A DNA stretch of 64,000 nt. Source: Escherichia coli. GTDB lineage: Bacteria > Pseudomonadota > Gammaproteobacteria > Enterobacterales > Enterobacteriaceae. The notes beneath the pieces were generated by a model. The model was not told where the DNA came from, made no database searches, and saw nothing but the letters and a program-made list of their open reading frames with translations. The translations under genes and the position numbers were made by a program. Location: the NCBI RefSeq assembly GCF_024298765.1, contig NZ_CP101210.1; one strand, given 5' to 3'. Of this stretch, positions 8,592 through 16,180 are shown piece by piece; position 1 is the stretch's first letter; the number at the start of each line of letters is the position of its first letter.

Positions 8592-10022
8592 TCAGGTCAG
8601 CATCCATAAAGTGCCATCAGTTAATATCGCATCGCCATGAGCGGCATATAACGATAATTGTCTCGAGTCCGCTTGCGGATAAATACGACTTGATAAGGTT
8701 GCCTCACCATCGTTAACAAACACTTCAACAGATGAACGATCCAAGAAAATACGAAGAGTCAGATATTCTGTATCAGGAAGTTCAACACTGCGGTAACCAT
8801 CCAACCCTTCCTCAGGGTAATAGCGCCACAGTACCAGTCGCCCGGCCTGATTATCCACATAAAGTCGCAGACCGTCTCCAAGGCGGACGCCATAGTGCTC
8901 CGCATGACTGTCAACCGTATGCCACGTCACCAATAATTCTGCGGCCTGTACATTTTCGGTCAGTAATTGCAAACCCTGTAACCTTACAGGGGATAATGGC
9001 TGGCATTTTTTGCGCAGAGATTCGACTTCACGCACAGGTCGCTGGCACAGCCGGCCATCGCGCTCAAAAACCTCTCTGGGCAGCGTCAGACATCCTGCCC
9101 AGGCTTCACTGCGGGTGGGCACGGGTGAATCCCACATATTCATCCATGCCATAATGATACGCCTGCCGTCCTCAGCCAGCATGGACTGTGGAGCATAAAA
9201 GTCATGACCATAATCCAGCTCTTCAAATCCCCCTTTCAGCGCAAAGACAGAACCAGGCTTCCAGCTCCCTGCCAACACACCGCTCTGAAAAAGGTTACGG
9301 AACCGATAACCGGAAGGGGGCATCCCCTGTGGTGAGAACATCAGCCAGTGAAAATTACCACACCTGAAGAAATCGGGGCATTCCCACATATAACTTTTTC
9401 CGGCTGCGGAATGAGCAAGAACATGCTCCAGATGCCAGTCCCGCAAAGATGTCCCGCGATACAACAGAACTTGCCCATTGTCAGAAGCGTCCCGGGCACC
9501 AATGACCATCCACCAGGAGCCGTCTTCGTGCCAGACTTTGGGATCACGGAAATGCATTATACCTTCCGGAGGTGTCAGCACACAGCCCTGCTTCTCAAAG
9601 TGAATACCATCATGACTTGTAGCCAGACACTGTACTTCACGGATAATGCTGTCATTACCACGATCATCGAGACAAATATGACCAGTATAAATAAGTGATA
9701 GCACGCCATCATCATCCACGGCACTCCCTGAAAAACAGCCATCACGATCATATTTATCTCCGGGTGCCAGCGCGATAGGTTCGTGTTGCCAGTGCAACAT
9801 GTCGGTACTGGTGGCATGCCCCCAGTGCATTGGCCCCTGATATGCGCTTGCAGGATGATGCTGGAAGAACGCATGGTAACGCCCATTGAAGTAAATAAGG
9901 CCATTTGGATCATTCATCCAGCCGGCAGGTGGAGCCAGATGAAAAATCGGGTACCAGGCATTACCACGACGTGCGCAAAGTTTTTCAAGGGCAGACTGTG
10001 CCAAAGCAAGACGCTGTTTCAT
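8592..10022 (-). CDS. rafD: Raffinose invertase / sucrose hydrolase (GH32 beta-fructofuranosidase)
   Basis: 476-aa ORF with GH32 motifs WMNDPNGL, FRDP and ECP; start overlaps the rafB stop (TGATG). Confidence 0.85.
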   Translation of the reverse strand: MKQRLALAQSALEKLCARRGNAWYPIFHLAPPAGWMNDPNGLIYFNGRYHAFFQHHPASAYQGPMHWGHATSTDMLHWQHEPIALAPGDKYDRDGCFSGSAVDDDGVLSLIYTGHICLDDRGNDSIIREVQCLATSHDGIHFEKQGCVLTPPEGIMHFRDPKVWHEDGSWWMVIGARDASDNGQVLLYRGTSLRDWHLEHVLAHSAAGKSYMWECPDFFRCGNFHWLMFSPQGMPPSGYRFRNLFQSGVLAGSWKPGSVFALKGGFEELDYGHDFYAPQSMLAEDGRRIIMAWMNMWDSPVPTRSEAWAGCLTLPREVFERDGRLCQRPVREVESLRKKCQPLSPVRLQGLQLLTENVQAAELLVTWHTVDSHAEHYGVRLGDGLRLYVDNQAGRLVLWRYYPEEGLDGYRSVELPDTEYLTLRIFLDRSSVEVFVNDGEATLSSRIYPQADSRQLSLYAAHGDAILTDGTLWMLT

Positions 10023-11299
10023 CAGTTAATCTCCGAATGCGCTGCAGGGGCTTTTTCTACAGAAGGGTGTACGCTCCCGCGGGAAGAACTCAGCGTGAAA
10101 ACTGATATCACGGTAACAGTCAGAGCAATCATCCCGAGCACAAAATACGTATTCTGGAATCCCATACGATCATACAGGTGGCCGGCAAAGGTAGAGAGAA
10201 GTATTGCAGCAAGTTGTTTGGAAAACTGAAAACCTATTAAATAAACGGTCGCTGACAGTCGGGTGTCAAACACTGCCGTAATATATTTGAACGCCCCAAC
10301 CAGCAAAAATGGAACTTCAAGAGCGTGAAGCATTTTCAGAATCACCACTTCTGTCGCGGTGGTGGCAAAAGCAGAACCGGTAATGCGGATGGTCATAATT
10401 CCCCCCGCAACAAGCAGGGTATTTTTGGCACCAATGCGATGAATTATCCATGGTGTACAGAACATGATAATGGCATTACAAATCTCCCCCGCAGTGGTAG
10501 CAAATCCGAATGCTTTTATTCCTGCCTGAGGAGTGTCAAAGAATGAACGAAAAAATGTGGCAAACTGCTGATCAAATACATCATAGACACAGGCCACACC
10601 AATCGTGTAGAGAACAAACATCCACATCTGACGCATGCGAAACAGGCTGAAGACCATTCTGGTCGAAATCAGGGAAGAATTGGCACCCAGTGTATTCATA
10701 ACCATTGCCGTCTGGCTGGTACTGGGGCGCGCCAGAAACAACAGAAGAAGCAACAATAATGCGCTTCCTGACCCCATCCAGAAAACCAGAGAAGGATCGA
10801 CATTAAAAAGCATTCCAGCCATAGCCGCACATAACGCCCAGCCCAGACACCCGAACATCCTCGCTTTACCGTATTCAAATCCACGACTGCGACTGACCCG
10901 CTCTATATAAGCTTCAATAGCTCCGGCACCTGCAGAAAACACAAAACCAATAAAGACACCGCCAGTCAGTGCGCCTGCCCAGATATTGAAGCGCAGCAGG
11001 GGCGCAAATACATATAAAAAAAAGGGGGCGAAAAATACAAGTAACAGGCTGATACTCCAGATCAGGTTTTTTTTCAGTCCCAGGCGATCTGATATGACCC
11101 CAAGCAATGGCTGGAAACTGATGGCAAACAGAGAAAGACATGAAAAGACTATACCTGTATCCGTTTTACTCAGTCCGACCACATCGGACAGCCATACAGG
11201 CAAAAACGGAAAACAGGTTGCCATGATGAAAAAGTAGAGAAAGAAGAACAGACCGAAAATCCAGAAATCGGGATTTTTATGCGTACTTGCAGAATTCAT
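10022..11299 (-). CDS. rafB: Raffinose permease (LacY-family oligosaccharide:H+ symporter)
   Basis: Strong resemblance to LacY along the whole length (NPDFWIFGLFFFLYFFIM…, MFGCLGWALCA…); start set at MNSASTHKNPDFW (425 aa). Confidence 0.85.
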   Translation of the reverse strand: MNSASTHKNPDFWIFGLFFFLYFFIMATCFPFLPVWLSDVVGLSKTDTGIVFSCLSLFAISFQPLLGVISDRLGLKKNLIWSISLLLVFFAPFFLYVFAPLLRFNIWAGALTGGVFIGFVFSAGAGAIEAYIERVSRSRGFEYGKARMFGCLGWALCAAMAGMLFNVDPSLVFWMGSGSALLLLLLLFLARPSTSQTAMVMNTLGANSSLISTRMVFSLFRMRQMWMFVLYTIGVACVYDVFDQQFATFFRSFFDTPQAGIKAFGFATTAGEICNAIIMFCTPWIIHRIGAKNTLLVAGGIMTIRITGSAFATTATEVVILKMLHALEVPFLLVGAFKYITAVFDTRLSATVYLIGFQFSKQLAAILLSTFAGHLYDRMGFQNTYFVLGMIALTVTVISVFTLSSSRGSVHPSVEKAPAAHSEIN

Positions 11300-11361
11300 T
11301 ATTCTTACCCTCACGGGATAATATTGAGAAACAGGACGGAGCTGAGGCTCCGTACCTCTCT

Positions 11362-13488
11362 TCACACAGCTCTTTCAAGTGCTATCAAAATCGCACTCTC
11401 CGGATCCAGTACGGGGAGCTGAATCCCTCCCTGTGCCAGCCATTCACCACTGGCCTCAAGGCTCTGATTCATCCAGACAGGTAATTTGCGCATGGTATGA
11501 CCGCCTTCACCAACCACCTGGAGGTCCGGGTGATCAATAACCCGAAGCCGGTAACGCACTTCCGCCGCCAGACCGGGAAAACGAAGTATGCCTGGTAAGG
11601 TGTAATCCGGCATTGCAAGCTGGCTGATCATAAAAAGTGCCTGAGACTGATCAGGGCTGACGACTCCCTGAACCTGTATCGAAGGATCTGGCATATCCAC
11701 ACGCCAGAGAACTCCTGTATGAATCAGTTGTCGCCATTCTTTATAGAGCAAGGCATACCGGCGATAACCGTCAGATTCCTTCGCATCTGCGGCCACCGGA
11801 TCCAGCTCCAGCCCCATATGGCCGAACAATGCCGTCAGCCCACGAAAAGCGATGCTGTGCTGCCGGAAAGTTGCATGGCAGCGGCGATGGCCAATATGCG
11901 CCCCCATCACCTCAGGAGGGAAAAAGTAACTCATGCCACGTTGTATGGTGCAGCGCTCCAGGGCATCATTATTGTCAGATGCCCAGAACCGGTGTGTGCG
12001 TTTCAGGACTTCGAAGTCAATACGCCCCCCACCGGAAGCACAGGACTCAAACTCAACATGTGGAAAACGTTCACGGAGGAGATCAAGCAATCGATAGAAC
12101 TGACGGGTCTGTGCATCTGCTGCCGCACGGCCTTCATGCCCTGCCTGTACAAGCTCACGATTCATGTCCCATTTCACATAATCAACCGGATGTTCTCCCA
12201 GTAACCATAAGAAACGTTCATAAATGTAAGCAAAGGCCTCTGGAATATTCAGGTTAAGAACATACTGATATCTTCCGGTTGGCTGGGAATATCCAGGCAT
12301 TGACAATACCCAGTCAGGATGAAGACGAAACAGGTCAGAATCCGGGTTAATCATTTCCGGCTCAACCCATATGCCAAATTCCATACCGAGAGATTTCACA
12401 TGTTTAATAACCGGCATCAGCCCGTTCGGGTATTTCTGTTCATCGGTATACCAGTCGCCCAGAGCCGCGCGGTCATCGTTACGTCCTTTAAACCAGCCAT
12501 CATCAATAATGAAACGTTCAACGCCCAGTGCTGCTGCACGCTCAGCCATCTGCATGATGTAATCAGGATTGTGATTGAAATAAATACCTTCCCAGGTATT
12601 GAGATGTACAGGGCGGGGTTTTTGCTCAGGGAAACGGATAATTTCATCACGCAAAAAACGATGGTATTGCTGACTCATTCCATTCAGGCCATCCGCAGAG
12701 TGGCAGGCATATAGCCACGGGGTGTACAGGGTTTCATTCTTCCTGAGAGCCTTCTCACCCGGCATCCACAGAGCCTCAGCCTGAACGTAACGCCTGCCGT
12801 CAGTTTTTGCCTCACATCTCATGCGGTGATTTCCACTCCACCCCAGATGCACAGCCCACACCTCTCCCTGTTGTTCCGAGAAGCCTGGCGTGCCGACAAT
12901 CAGCGCCGGAAAATGCTCATGAGATGTCCGCCCTCTGCGATTTTCCAGAACAAAAGCATCATGAGTGAGACGTACCCTGTGCGGCTGAAATTCACGAGTC
13001 CAGCGTCCGTGAAAAGCCATGACTTCTTCCGCACGTTCCGCTAAAGGTAAAGTGATGGCGAAACGATTTATCTGCCAGTCCCCCTCTCTGAGGTTGGTCA
13101 GTGCATGACGAACTTTCAGAATTCCTGATGGCGTCATCACCAGCTCGCTGACCAGACGCAGGCCGGCTACCGAATCTTCACTGGTAAGTCTCAGAGTGTT
13201 TTCGGTATGTTCCACGTCAACTGTATAAAAAACAGGAGATGCATCCAGCCCATTCCTGTGTCCTTCCAGTCCCGGAGAGCTAAAAAGTCCCAGGGCATTT
13301 TCAGCCATCAGTGTTAGTGGCGTATCAATATCCAGACGACCATTCGCAACCGGTCTTTCCAGGCTGGCACAGTCATCCGGTGAGAAATGTTTCAGTGCAG
13401 AGCCCCACCAGATAATTTCTGCATGTGGACGGGTTTTAATAATTAAATCAGAGCGAGGACTGCTCAGTCTGCAGTACTTTGAAACCAT
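11362..13488 (-). CDS. rafA: Alpha-galactosidase (GH36)
   Basis: 708-aa ORF; GH36-like; position between rafR and rafB. Confidence 0.85.
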   Translation of the reverse strand: MVSKYCRLSSPRSDLIIKTRPHAEIIWWGSALKHFSPDDCASLERPVANGRLDIDTPLTLMAENALGLFSSPGLEGHRNGLDASPVFYTVDVEHTENTLRLTSEDSVAGLRLVSELVMTPSGILKVRHALTNLREGDWQINRFAITLPLAERAEEVMAFHGRWTREFQPHRVRLTHDAFVLENRRGRTSHEHFPALIVGTPGFSEQQGEVWAVHLGWSGNHRMRCEAKTDGRRYVQAEALWMPGEKALRKNETLYTPWLYACHSADGLNGMSQQYHRFLRDEIIRFPEQKPRPVHLNTWEGIYFNHNPDYIMQMAERAAALGVERFIIDDGWFKGRNDDRAALGDWYTDEQKYPNGLMPVIKHVKSLGMEFGIWVEPEMINPDSDLFRLHPDWVLSMPGYSQPTGRYQYVLNLNIPEAFAYIYERFLWLLGEHPVDYVKWDMNRELVQAGHEGRAAADAQTRQFYRLLDLLRERFPHVEFESCASGGGRIDFEVLKRTHRFWASDNNDALERCTIQRGMSYFFPPEVMGAHIGHRRCHATFRQHSIAFRGLTALFGHMGLELDPVAADAKESDGYRRYALLYKEWRQLIHTGVLWRVDMPDPSIQVQGVVSPDQSQALFMISQLAMPDYTLPGILRFPGLAAEVRYRLRVIDHPDLQVVGEGGHTMRKLPVWMNQSLEASGEWLAQGGIQLPVLDPESAILIALERAV

Positions 13489-13526: not shown

Positions 13527-13561
13527 CCGAAACGTTTCGGGTATCAACCAAAACGTTTCGG
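13527..13561 (-). promoter_or_regulatory. Two palindromic operator-like sites (CCGAAACGTTTCGG at 13527..13540 and CCAAAACGTTTCGG at 13548..13561) in the rafA promoter region; candidate RafR operators
   Basis: Perfect and near-perfect 14-bp palindromes 21 bp apart centre to centre, 40–73 bp upstream of the rafA start, adjacent to the LacI-family repressor gene. Confidence 0.55.
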
Positions 13562-13583: not shown

Positions 13584-14594
13584 TCAGGAGCAAGGAGGAT
13601 GAATCGTCTTTCCCGGATAAAATACCGGGTTCCAGACAACCTGTAGTGGTTTTGATGATGAATCAGTAATTATCTGATATATCATCTCGGAAATCTGGCG
13701 ACCAACGAGGCTTCGTGTTGACTGAATAACTGCAGCCACATCCAGCTCAATAATACTGTCCTGTGGCAAACCATCATATACAACCAGAGATACCGCATCT
13801 TTTCCTGAAAGACGACCGCTCAACTGCAGTGCCATGGCAGCACCATCTCCACTCAGGTCATTGTCAGTAATAATAGCTGTTGGTGGTATCGGTAGTGACA
13901 TTAACTCCATCACGGCCTGATATCCTGCTCGCCGTGTGGGAGAAACCAGCCGCAGCCATGTATCTTCCAGTTCATGCTCATTCAGTGCATCAAGCCATCC
14001 CTGACGTCTTGCAACAACATAGCTATGTGAAGTGTCTTCACTCAACAATGCAATACGTTTATGTCCCAAAGCAATCAGTTTCTGGGTTGCCTGTCCAGTC
14101 CCGGCATGATTATCAAAGTCAAACCACGCACAGGGCAGACCAGATGGTACCCGACCAAGAGCCAGAAATGGAATACCTGCTTTATGAAGGTGTGTGATAC
14201 GGGGATCGTCATCCAGAGTGTGTGCAATGATGAGAGCATCAACCCTGCGACTTTCAACAAGCCGCATATAGCTGTGGCAATCGGCATGCTCATCATCAGC
14301 TATCAGTAGTAAGTCAATATCATGGTGAGCAAGTTCCCGGCTGATGCAACTGACCATATCCATAAAAACACCACTGTTAAATGGCACATCACGTCCAGGA
14401 TAAACCAGACCGACAGCATCGGTTTTACCGGTTTTGAGTCTTCTTGCCTGAGTATTAGGACGGTAACCGCGTCGACGAGCTTCAGCTTCCACCCGTGCAC
14501 GGGTGGAAGCTGACACATCTGCATAGCCTCCAAGAGCCCGACTGACAGTGGTGACAGAAACTCCGAGTGCAGTGGCAATCGCCTTAAGTGACAT
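13584..14594 (-). CDS. rafR: LacI-family transcriptional repressor of the raf operon
   Basis: 336-aa ORF; N-terminal HTH (LKAIATALGVSVTTVSRAL); periplasmic-binding-protein-like sugar-binding core. Confidence 0.8.
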   Translation of the reverse strand: MSLKAIATALGVSVTTVSRALGGYADVSASTRARVEAEARRRGYRPNTQARRLKTGKTDAVGLVYPGRDVPFNSGVFMDMVSCISRELAHHDIDLLLIADDEHADCHSYMRLVESRRVDALIIAHTLDDDPRITHLHKAGIPFLALGRVPSGLPCAWFDFDNHAGTGQATQKLIALGHKRIALLSEDTSHSYVVARRQGWLDALNEHELEDTWLRLVSPTRRAGYQAVMELMSLPIPPTAIITDNDLSGDGAAMALQLSGRLSGKDAVSLVVYDGLPQDSIIELDVAAVIQSTRSLVGRQISEMIYQIITDSSSKPLQVVWNPVFYPGKTIHPPCS

Positions 14595-14617
14595 ATTATC
14601 TCCTGCTAATTATTATA

Positions 14618-14660
14618 GTAGACCGTCCCCCTAAATCTCCAGACAACCAATATCACTTAT
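14618..14660 (+). mobile_element. IS2 left-end remnant (~42 bp, about 38/42 identical to the IS2 left IR as recalled), 24 bp upstream of the rafR start
   Basis: TAGACCGTCCCCCTAAATCTCCAGACAACCAATATCACTTAT versus recalled TAGACTGGCCCCCTGAATCTCCAGACAACCAATATCACTTAA. Confidence 0.5.
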
Positions 14661-14676
14661 TGTAAGTTAACGGAAT

Positions 14677-14701
14677 CCCTCTGATCTGTAAGATCAGAGG
14701 G
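14677..14701. other. Perfect hairpin/palindrome CCCTCTGATC-TGTAA-GATCAGAGGG downstream of the integrase stop
   Basis: 10-bp perfect stem, 5-nt loop; no flanking U-tract on either strand. Confidence 0.5.
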
Positions 14702-14743
14702 AAAGGTTATTGATTGTGAGAATAATTTCAGGACAAAGTGTAA

Positions 14744-15928
14744 TTAACTCTCCTGGATGGAAAGTGAATCAATGTAGTCAGCGTACCATTGCATCATTTC
14801 ACGGCGACCATCGAGATACAGGGCATGATTATAGGTACCCCTGATGGAATTTTTATCCACATGAGCTAACTGCATTTCAATCCAGGCAGAATTAAAGCCC
14901 TGTTCGTGCAGAATGGTACTCATGGTGTGACGAAAACCATGACCGGTTGCCCTGCCATCGTAACCGATACGTTTGAGCACCATATTGATGCTGGCTTCGC
15001 TCATTGGCTTGTTGATATCACAACGTCCCGGGAAAACCAGCCGGTATTGTCCGGAGAAAGTTTTGAGCTGCAGCAGAATGTCAGTGGCCTGTCGTGACAG
15101 TGGTACGACATGTTTACGTCGCATTTTCATGCGGCTTTCAGGGATTGTCCACAGGGCATTATCAAAATCAATTTCTGACCATTCAGCGGACCGTAGTTCA
15201 ATCGTTCTGAGGCCTGTCAGAAGCAGCAGATTTGTCGCCATGCGGGTAACAGGACTGCCATGATATTCAGCGAGCTTCCGGAGAAAAACAGGGAGCTCAT
15301 CTGCTCTCAGGTGGGGGAAATGTGCAGCTTTTGGCGCCGCCAGCGTACTGGTCAGTTCAGATGCCGGATTGACAGTGGCTCGTCCGGTGGCGATGGCATA
15401 ACGAAAAATCTGATTACAGTATTGACGCACCTTACGAAGTTTTTCCAGCGAGCCACGTTTTTCTATGCGGCGCAGAATTTCCAGCATTTCCAGCGGGAGG
15501 ATATCAGTAACGCTTCGTTTGCCCAGATACGGGAAAATATCTTTATCCAGAGCCTCCAGTACGCTTCTGGCGTAACTTTCAGACCATGACAAAGATTTAT
15601 GCTGATGCCATTCCGTAGCAAGGGCATGGAACGTATTGGTGGCAGAGATTTTCTGAGTGAGTTTTTCCTTTCGCTTCTTTTCGCCCGGGTCGCCACCTTC
15701 GGAGATAATTTTTCGGGCATCGTCGCGTTTGATTCTGGCTTCAGCAAGGGAGACGTCGGGATAGACGCCGAGGGCCAGTTTTTTCTCTTTTCCTGCTATC
15801 CGGTATTTAAGCCGCCAGTAGCGGGCACCCGTGGTTTTTACCAGCAGATATAAACCACGTTCGTCAGAGAGTTTATAGTCTTTTTCTTTAGGTCTGGCTG
15901 TTTCGACCTGTCTGGCTGTAAGTGCCAT
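14744..15928 (-). CDS. int: Tyrosine recombinase, P4-type phage/island integrase
   Basis: N-terminal MALTARQVETARPKEKDYKLSD…GLYLLV typical of P4-family integrases; C-terminal catalytic region; immediately adjacent to tRNA-Phe; ORF track start at 15958 probably too early. Confidence 0.85.
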   Translation of the reverse strand: MALTARQVETARPKEKDYKLSDERGLYLLVKTTGARYWRLKYRIAGKEKKLALGVYPDVSLAEARIKRDDARKIISEGGDPGEKKRKEKLTQKISATNTFHALATEWHQHKSLSWSESYARSVLEALDKDIFPYLGKRSVTDILPLEMLEILRRIEKRGSLEKLRKVRQYCNQIFRYAIATGRATVNPASELTSTLAAPKAAHFPHLRADELPVFLRKLAEYHGSPVTRMATNLLLLTGLRTIELRSAEWSEIDFDNALWTIPESRMKMRRKHVVPLSRQATDILLQLKTFSGQYRLVFPGRCDINKPMSEASINMVLKRIGYDGRATGHGFRHTMSTILHEQGFNSAWIEMQLAHVDKNSIRGTYNHALYLDGRREMMQWYADYIDSLSIQES

Positions 15929-16104: not shown

Positions 16105-16180
16105 TGGTGCCCGGACTCGGAATCGAACCAAGGACACGGGGATTTTCAATCCCCTGCTCTACCGACTGAGCTATCCGGGC
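16105..16180 (-). tRNA. pheV: tRNA-Phe (anticodon GAA)
   Basis: Reverse complement reads GCCCGGATAGCTCAGTCGGTAGAGCAGGGGATTGAAAATCCCCGTGTCCTTGGTTCGATTCCGAGTCCGGGCACCA, 76 nt with CCA end; pheV assignment from flanking yqgA/speC. Confidence 0.95.

Follow-up and report, generated by a model that had tools for sequence, protein, structure and literature searches.

An inert IS2 left-end relic joins the raf operon to a tRNA-Phe island integrase in Escherichia coli and carries the -35-like half of a candidate rafR promoter

Introduction

IS2 forms fusion promoters at ampC, acrEF and neoR (PMC9330008), the ampC case being attributed to Jaurin & Normark 1983 as cited in PMC9330008. In these promoters an IS2 terminal sequence takes the -35 position, the -10 lies in the adjoining non-IS DNA, and the length of the spacer decides activity. 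The outward -35 of the IS2 junction promoter is located in the right end (IRR; PMC3299598, PMC9330008), while the left end (IRL) has inward promoter elements only (PMC3299598), and no outward -35 in IRL is documented in either paper. The IRL itself has been mapped into an 11-bp cleavage domain (residues 1-11) and a transposase-binding domain (residues 12-42) (Lewis et al., PMC3299598). The same study describes two promoters that involve this DNA, the minicircle promoter Pjunc and the indigenous promoter PIRL, whose function depends strictly on a spacer that a few IRL tip bases determine.

Islands at tRNA-Phe genes (pheV/pheU) with a P4-type integrase form a second set of related systems, in which tRNA-Phe and then the integrase stand at the island edge. 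A recent survey of pheV islands does not mention raf (PMC11537424), and we found no mention of raf in the literature on pheV islands. Likewise, no published description of the rafR promoter was retrieved. The classical raf arrangement is reportedly defined, in work by Aslanidis and Schmitt from 1990, by twin operators (O1/O2) at the rafA promoter together with the rafR repressor.

Here we describe an E. coli locus in which these systems meet. It resembles the IS2 fusion promoters in having IS2 terminal sequence at the -35 position of a candidate promoter and the -10 in neighbouring DNA, but only 33 nt of the IS remain, and these are fixed in the population instead of stemming from a fresh insertion; the end concerned is an IRL with a weak candidate hexamer, whereas the described mechanism uses the outward -35 of IRR. 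With Pjunc and PIRL it has the same IRL DNA in common; those promoters, however, read inward into IS2, whereas the candidate reads outward across the tip. Among tRNA-Phe islands it is set apart by its cargo, a sugar catabolic operon joined to int via an IS2 relic. No paper describing an IS2 relic at rafR was found. The result mainly documents how the raf island joint is built, the fact that the lineages examined share no native rafR promoter, and the lineage-wide nature of the feature; it opens no long-standing question.

Results and discussion

Layout of the joint

The window analysed here is a 64,000-nt chromosomal segment of E. coli (contig NZ_CP101210.1), identical to strain 104 (NZ_CP029164). 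Its minus strand carries, in order, tRNA-Phe (pheV), a P4-type integrase, an 84-nt segment with a hairpin, the IS2 relic, rafR, rafA, a permease, a GH32 invertase and a porin; int and rafR are on the same strand and 149 nt apart. The features of the joint and of the raf regulatory region are as follows.

16105..16180, minus strand: tRNA-Phe (pheV), the island attachment site
14744..15928, minus strand: P4-type tyrosine integrase (int), co-directional with rafR (annotated in RefSeq at the identical locus; NCBIfam PRK09692)
14660..14743, unstranded: relic-to-int-stop segment, found in E. coli only beside this raf junction
14676..14702, unstranded: hairpin between int and relic, with a perfect 12-bp stem and a 3-nt loop
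14627..14659, plus strand: IS2 IRL relic, residues 9-41 with G15A (pattern match and comparison with the plasmid allele and genuine IS2)
14608..14626, unstranded: lineage-specific AT-rich spacer of 19 nt, on the minus strand ACGGTCTACTATAATAATT, neither IS2 nor common to other raf lineages
14595..14607, minus strand: block AGCAGGAGATAAT, including the Shine-Dalgarno sequence AGGAG at 14600-14604 (right-anchored comparison of 10 upstream regions)
13584..14594, minus strand: rafR, LacI-family repressor of 336 aa, ATG at 14594-14592 (ORF list; Pfam and NCBIfam domains; synteny)
13527..13561, unstranded: twin raf operators CCGAAACGTTTCGG and CCAAAACGTTTCGG, predicted targets of RafR

RafR is intact, with a LacI helix-turn-helix (Pfam, NCBIfam) and a periplasmic-binding domain, as expected of a raf repressor, and its gene lies directly upstream of rafA-rafB-rafD in synteny with an alpha-galactosidase, MFS permease, GH32 invertase and porin. 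As in the classical raf regulatory region, with which the gene order agrees, two palindromes of the CCGAAACGTTTCGG type surround the -35 of rafA: the operators at 13527-13540 and 13548-13561, in the rafR-rafA spacer, flank its TTGATA hexamer. From these elements the raf regulatory system looks functional. The name 'raffinose repressor' never occurs among the source names of the RafR clusters.

The hairpin between int and the relic does not qualify as a canonical intrinsic terminator: it was left unflagged by the terminator scan, and its tail, UUCCGUU, has no U-tract. An Rfam scan of 14300-15000 gave no RNA family match. In a copy of the locus at pheU (L019, NZ_CP019903) the loop at 14688-14690 reads TAC, the reverse complement of the GTA of the window, with nothing else changed, a change suggestive of loop inversion at a quasi-palindrome; the chromosomal matches to 14661-14775 in the '97.4%' class probably all carry the flipped loop.

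Identity and extent of the IS2 relic

The canonical 41-nt IS2 IRL pattern has a single match in the window, at 14619-14659 on the plus strand (38/41 identity, three mismatches); 100 shuffles gave none. Between this match and the rafR ATG lie exactly 24 nt (14595-14618), which bears out the distance given by the initial annotation, although the interval that it listed, 14595..14617, leaves out one base.

Plasmid raf loci of the same lineage (RafR 98.8% identical) show how much of the match is IS2. There the joint reads ...TATAGTAGACCGT abutting TAGACTGGCCCCCTGAATC... (also written ...TATAGTAGACCGT abutting TAGACTGGCCCCCTGAATCTCC...) and contains a perfect 41/41 IRL with 100% identity to those of genuine IS2 copies, the homology ending right after CACTTA. 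Compared with this allele, the window is without the eight tip bases TAGACTGG and differs at IRL residue 15 by G>A. Because the plasmid allele shows the 8-bp TAGACTGG to be missing from the window, TAGACCGT at 14619-14626 is counted as flanking DNA with a chance likeness to the lost IRL tip. The earlier identification of an IS2 left end therefore stands for 14627-14659 and falls away for 14619-14626. The truly IS2-derived part (IRL residues 9-41) lies 32 nt from the rafR ATG and has zero mismatches over its 33 nt if G/A is permitted at one position (32/33); BLAST alignments suggest that it possibly reaches out to 14667. Its tip side faces rafR and its IS-interior side faces int. An 8-bp deletion in the chromosomal lineage is the simplest reading of the allele difference, the opposite direction, an insertion plus two substitutions recreating a perfect IS2 end, being far less likely.

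The cleavage domain of the IRL (residues 1-11) is not intact: residues 1-8 are deleted in the window and in chromosomal copies L001, L019 and L020, while the plasmid allele alone still has them. The transposase-binding domain is largely preserved (residues 12-41, one mismatch). No complete IS2 is present at the relic, which has no orfA/orfB transposase genes and whose IS2 homology stops at residue 41 (at most ~49); it lacks both the inward promoter PIRL, which runs from residue 48, and the OrfA site TAAATAA. Judged by this sequence, without transposase genes and, in the chromosomal variant, with the terminal 8 bp gone, the relic is unable to transpose.

Distribution of the joint

The arrangement of int, hairpin, relic, 19-nt spacer and rafR was found in ~455 E. 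coli replicons, both chromosomal and plasmid, with the 8-bp deletion on chromosomal pheV and pheU islands and the full IRL on F-type plasmids. An 80-nt junction query retrieved 284 records at >=99% identity, chromosomes throughout among the matches listed, whereas plasmid records aligned to it at 89.8% over 88 nt, corresponding to the 8-bp-longer allele. In PLSDB the junction was covered in 148 plasmids, and 0/148 reached >=99% identity to the window. A query spanning the relic to the int stop (14661-14775) retrieved 457 records, in which it hit 312 places on chromosomes and 172 on plasmids, always with raf; other integrases align only from 14742 (the stop codon) onward. Among the ~455 E. coli replicons there was no IS-free copy of this raf lineage. 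The relic is an old, fixed feature of the raf lineage and not peculiar to the strain, so that the restriction of IS-dependence to 'this strain' in the initial annotation has to be dropped.

The solo IS2 IRL relic is best read as marking the fusion of a raf module (rafR-rafA-rafB-rafD-rafY) to a tRNA-Phe island integrase module. That joint would have cut off the DNA that originally preceded rafR, up to a point ~13-32 nt from the start codon.

Two observations concern individual copies. The same int-relic-raf island occurs at pheV (L001/L020) and at pheU (L019) in different strains, with identical RafR and integrase accessions. In plasmid locus L002 the solo IRL (9229-9269) and the IRL of a full IS2 (10112-11442) are direct and ~880 bp apart, and the solo IRL, int fragment and IS2 form a unit bounded by IRL and IRR.

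No IRR partner with a 5-bp target duplication was found for the relic in the window, where the sole IRR lies 8.2 kb off, inside an IS1. This IRR raises the question of whether raf was once part of an IS2-raf-IS2 composite transposon whose right-hand IS2 left the relic as its inner end, with the IS2 3' fragment at 6148-6436 as the partner of the relic, an origin that we regard as quite unlikely. The IRR (6396-6436) is a perfect 41/41, is in direct orientation with the relic, and has its tip facing that of the relic across the raf operon, as such a transposon would require; direct orientation, however, is an even chance, and IS2 fragments are common in E. coli. Furthermore, the IRR adjoins not raf DNA but 66 bp of what we take, with the RefSeq annotation, to be an IS1 end, and that IS2 therefore inserted into an IS1 flanking raf. 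The plasmid copies, too, have the relic but not the IRR side, their homology ending ~65-200 bp past rafY. As a side observation, window positions 5741-6502 are an IS1 carrying the 3' ~290 bp of IS2, with the IS1/IS2 junction at a common CGCCAG near 6142-6147 and the last 66 bp of IS1 at 6437-6502, right after the IRR.

Upstream regions of other raf lineages

The upstream region of rafR was compared with those of seven other raf lineages, collected by plasmid tblastn and exact-protein contig look-ups. RafR identity to the window was 88-89% for L003, L010 and L007, 79% for L008 and L015, 76-77% for L011 and L014, and 65% for L009; a RafR search of genome contigs returned only relatives at 27-31% identity, which were of no use for upstream comparison. 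The only upstream sequence common to the window and the other lineages was the 13-nt AGCAGGAGATAAT of the Shine-Dalgarno region, and beyond -13 the sequences are unrelated. L008 and L011 have ~30 nt in common with each other; identity of the 19-nt spacer to these two is ~47% (ungapped, counted by eye), which is indistinguishable from chance. A conserved native -10 at the position of TATAAT was considered and rejected, as other lineages score <=1.2 bits there and only the window lineage has the perfect TATAAT.

Thus the comparison with plasmid-borne raf operons that had been proposed as a check gave a full IRL in plasmids of the same lineage and only AGCAGGAGATAAT in common with the others, and a native promoter conserved in IS-free raf loci, the finding that would have spoken against IS involvement, left no sign in the seven other lineages.

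Several of these lineages have mobile elements of their own near rafR. All plasmid rafR lineages examined (L003, L010, L007, L008, L009) carry an IS3-family element or relic within ~400 bp upstream of the gene. Genuine IS2 copies point their IRL at rafR in L010 and L003, with tips ~105 and 136 nt from the ATG, respectively; an IS3-family right-end relic lies ~80 nt upstream of rafR in L007, and L008 and L009 have annotated IS3-family transposases upstream of rafR. Metagenome contigs with the 79% RafR all break ~130 nt upstream.

Candidate promoters of rafR

Promoters were sought with a consensus scan and with a position weight matrix (PWM) of our own, which is heuristic in its hexamer frequencies. 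The sole minus-strand site that the consensus scan gave between the int stop and rafR was TGGAGA-18-TATAAT, which agrees with the consensus at 10/12 positions and consists of the following two hexamers, each picked by both scans.

14636..14641, minus strand: -35-like hexamer TGGAGA, 4/6, inside the relic (complement of IRL residues 18-23)
14612..14617, minus strand: -10 hexamer TATAAT, perfect, 17 nt before the ATG, in the non-IS spacer

By the heuristic PWM this site scores 11.1 bits, which is within the top 4.5e-5 when every combination of site and spacer in the window is ranked, with a chance expectation of ~0.05 per 150-nt intergenic strand for such a score; TATAAT accounts for 8.7 of the 11.1 bits and TGGAGA for 1.9. 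The expectation that any rafR promoter must overlap the IS remnant or lie further upstream agrees with this outcome, since the geometry puts any rafR-proximal -35 in the relic and both scans converge on TGGAGA-18-TATAAT. By its position, the relic probably covers the -35 position of the nearest rafR promoter. The premise that IS ends supply promoter elements is likewise sound for IS2 in general, fusion promoters being documented (PMC9330008), but does not carry over directly to the IRL, the outward -35 being in the IRR (PMC3299598). In fusion promoters the -10 lies in flanking DNA at 16-18 nt, and the window has TATAAT at an 18-nt spacer, whereas the plasmid allele has 26 nt between the two hexamers. 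We describe the site as a candidate for the well-known class of fusion promoters, built at a lineage-wide island joint on an IS2 IRL relic that is itself inert.

We give a probability of roughly one half to the reading that the hybrid TGGAGA-18-TATAAT site is the main rafR promoter in the window allele. Because the joint cut away the native rafR upstream DNA, the nearest promoter would be a patchwork, with TATAAT in the non-IS spacer and the -35 position inside the relic. The predicted transcription start, ~11-13 nt upstream of the ATG, immediately precedes the AGGAG ribosome-binding site, and the resulting weak constitutive expression would supply RafR for binding to the twin operators of rafA. 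Chromosomal copies differ from plasmid copies in the 8-bp deletion, which would put TGGAGA in register. In the plasmid allele the best proximal site reaches 6.6 bits (TTCAGG at 20 nt from the same TATAAT), because the extra 8 bp breaks the TGGAGA-TATAAT spacing; the predicted effect of the indel on promoter quality is therefore ~4.5 bits, in favour of the chromosomal allele. From this arrangement we infer that the hybrid site fires and that the relic hexamer matters. Against it stand the weakness of TGGAGA (4/6, 1.9 bits) and the non-optimal 18-nt spacing, as well as sites in the 3' end of int that score comparably: ATAAAA-17-TATAAT, 233 nt before the rafR ATG (11.2 bits), and TTGAAA-17-GATAAA, 257 nt before it (9.9 bits), both of them upstream of the hairpin and retained in the plasmid copies.

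These int sites belong to a serious rival, in which the relic is a passive scar and rafR is transcribed through the hairpin and relic, either by read-through from int or from the promoter-like sites at the int 3' end; we hold it to be possible, if tentative. Read-through is favoured by the co-directionality of int and rafR at a distance of 149 nt, and by a hairpin that is not called as a terminator and has no U-tract, although its perfect 12-bp stem would still stand in the path. In the plasmid copies, furthermore, a full IS2 truncates int and has removed its 5' half along with its promoter, which is therefore unavailable there. Initiation within int would be open to both alleles, given that the 11.2- and 9.9-bit sites are kept in the plasmids, but each of the two sites has a poor -35 or -10 half. 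A passive scar would also leave a perfect TATAAT idle 17 nt before a start codon with its Shine-Dalgarno sequence, which is unlikely.

Between the hybrid site and read-through lies the reading that rafR is driven by a weak, mainly -10-dependent promoter at TATAAT, with the -35 sequence irrelevant and expression independent of the IS. The dominance of TATAAT in the score (8.7 of 11.1 bits) fits this, as does the plasmid variant, which retains the -10 without an acceptable -35. Repressors need little expression, as exemplified by lacI, and a low level would suffice here. We nevertheless consider this reading unlikely, in that -10-only promoters are usually very weak, a TG extended -10 motif is absent at TATAAT (the upstream bases are T-A-C), and a deletion that improves the register has become fixed in the chromosomal lineage.

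Returning to the hybrid site, these comparisons bear on the initial proposal that rafR expression, and with it raf inducibility, is IS-dependent. The geometry and the lack of a conserved native promoter speak for it; against it are the non-IS origin of TATAAT with its 8.7 of 11.1 bits, the weakness of TGGAGA, and the plasmid allele without this arrangement. As that variant is presumably also regulated, the relic hexamer is not essential for rafR expression in general. If the hybrid site works, it would be a natural example of an IS relic fixed in the promoter of a regulatory gene, and the 8-bp indel would lead to different repressor levels in chromosomal and plasmid raf operons.

A further reading concerns the protein rather than the promoter sequence. 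IS2 transposase from a resident copy could bind the retained IRL binding domain in trans and occlude the rafR promoter, because that domain is nearly whole and the candidate -35 lies inside it. If true, the repressor level, and hence the threshold of raf induction, would be coupled to IS2 activity in trans, but we judge this very improbable. In a linked reading, the 8-bp tip deletion could have been selected to disarm the end and create a promoter, making the relic a domesticated IS end.

The AT-rich spacer contains -10-like hexamers on both strands. On the plus strand, 14572-14616 holds two promoter-like sites facing away from rafR, GTGACA-17-TATTAT and GTGGCA-16-TATTAT, from which antisense transcription would run into int by way of the relic and the hairpin.
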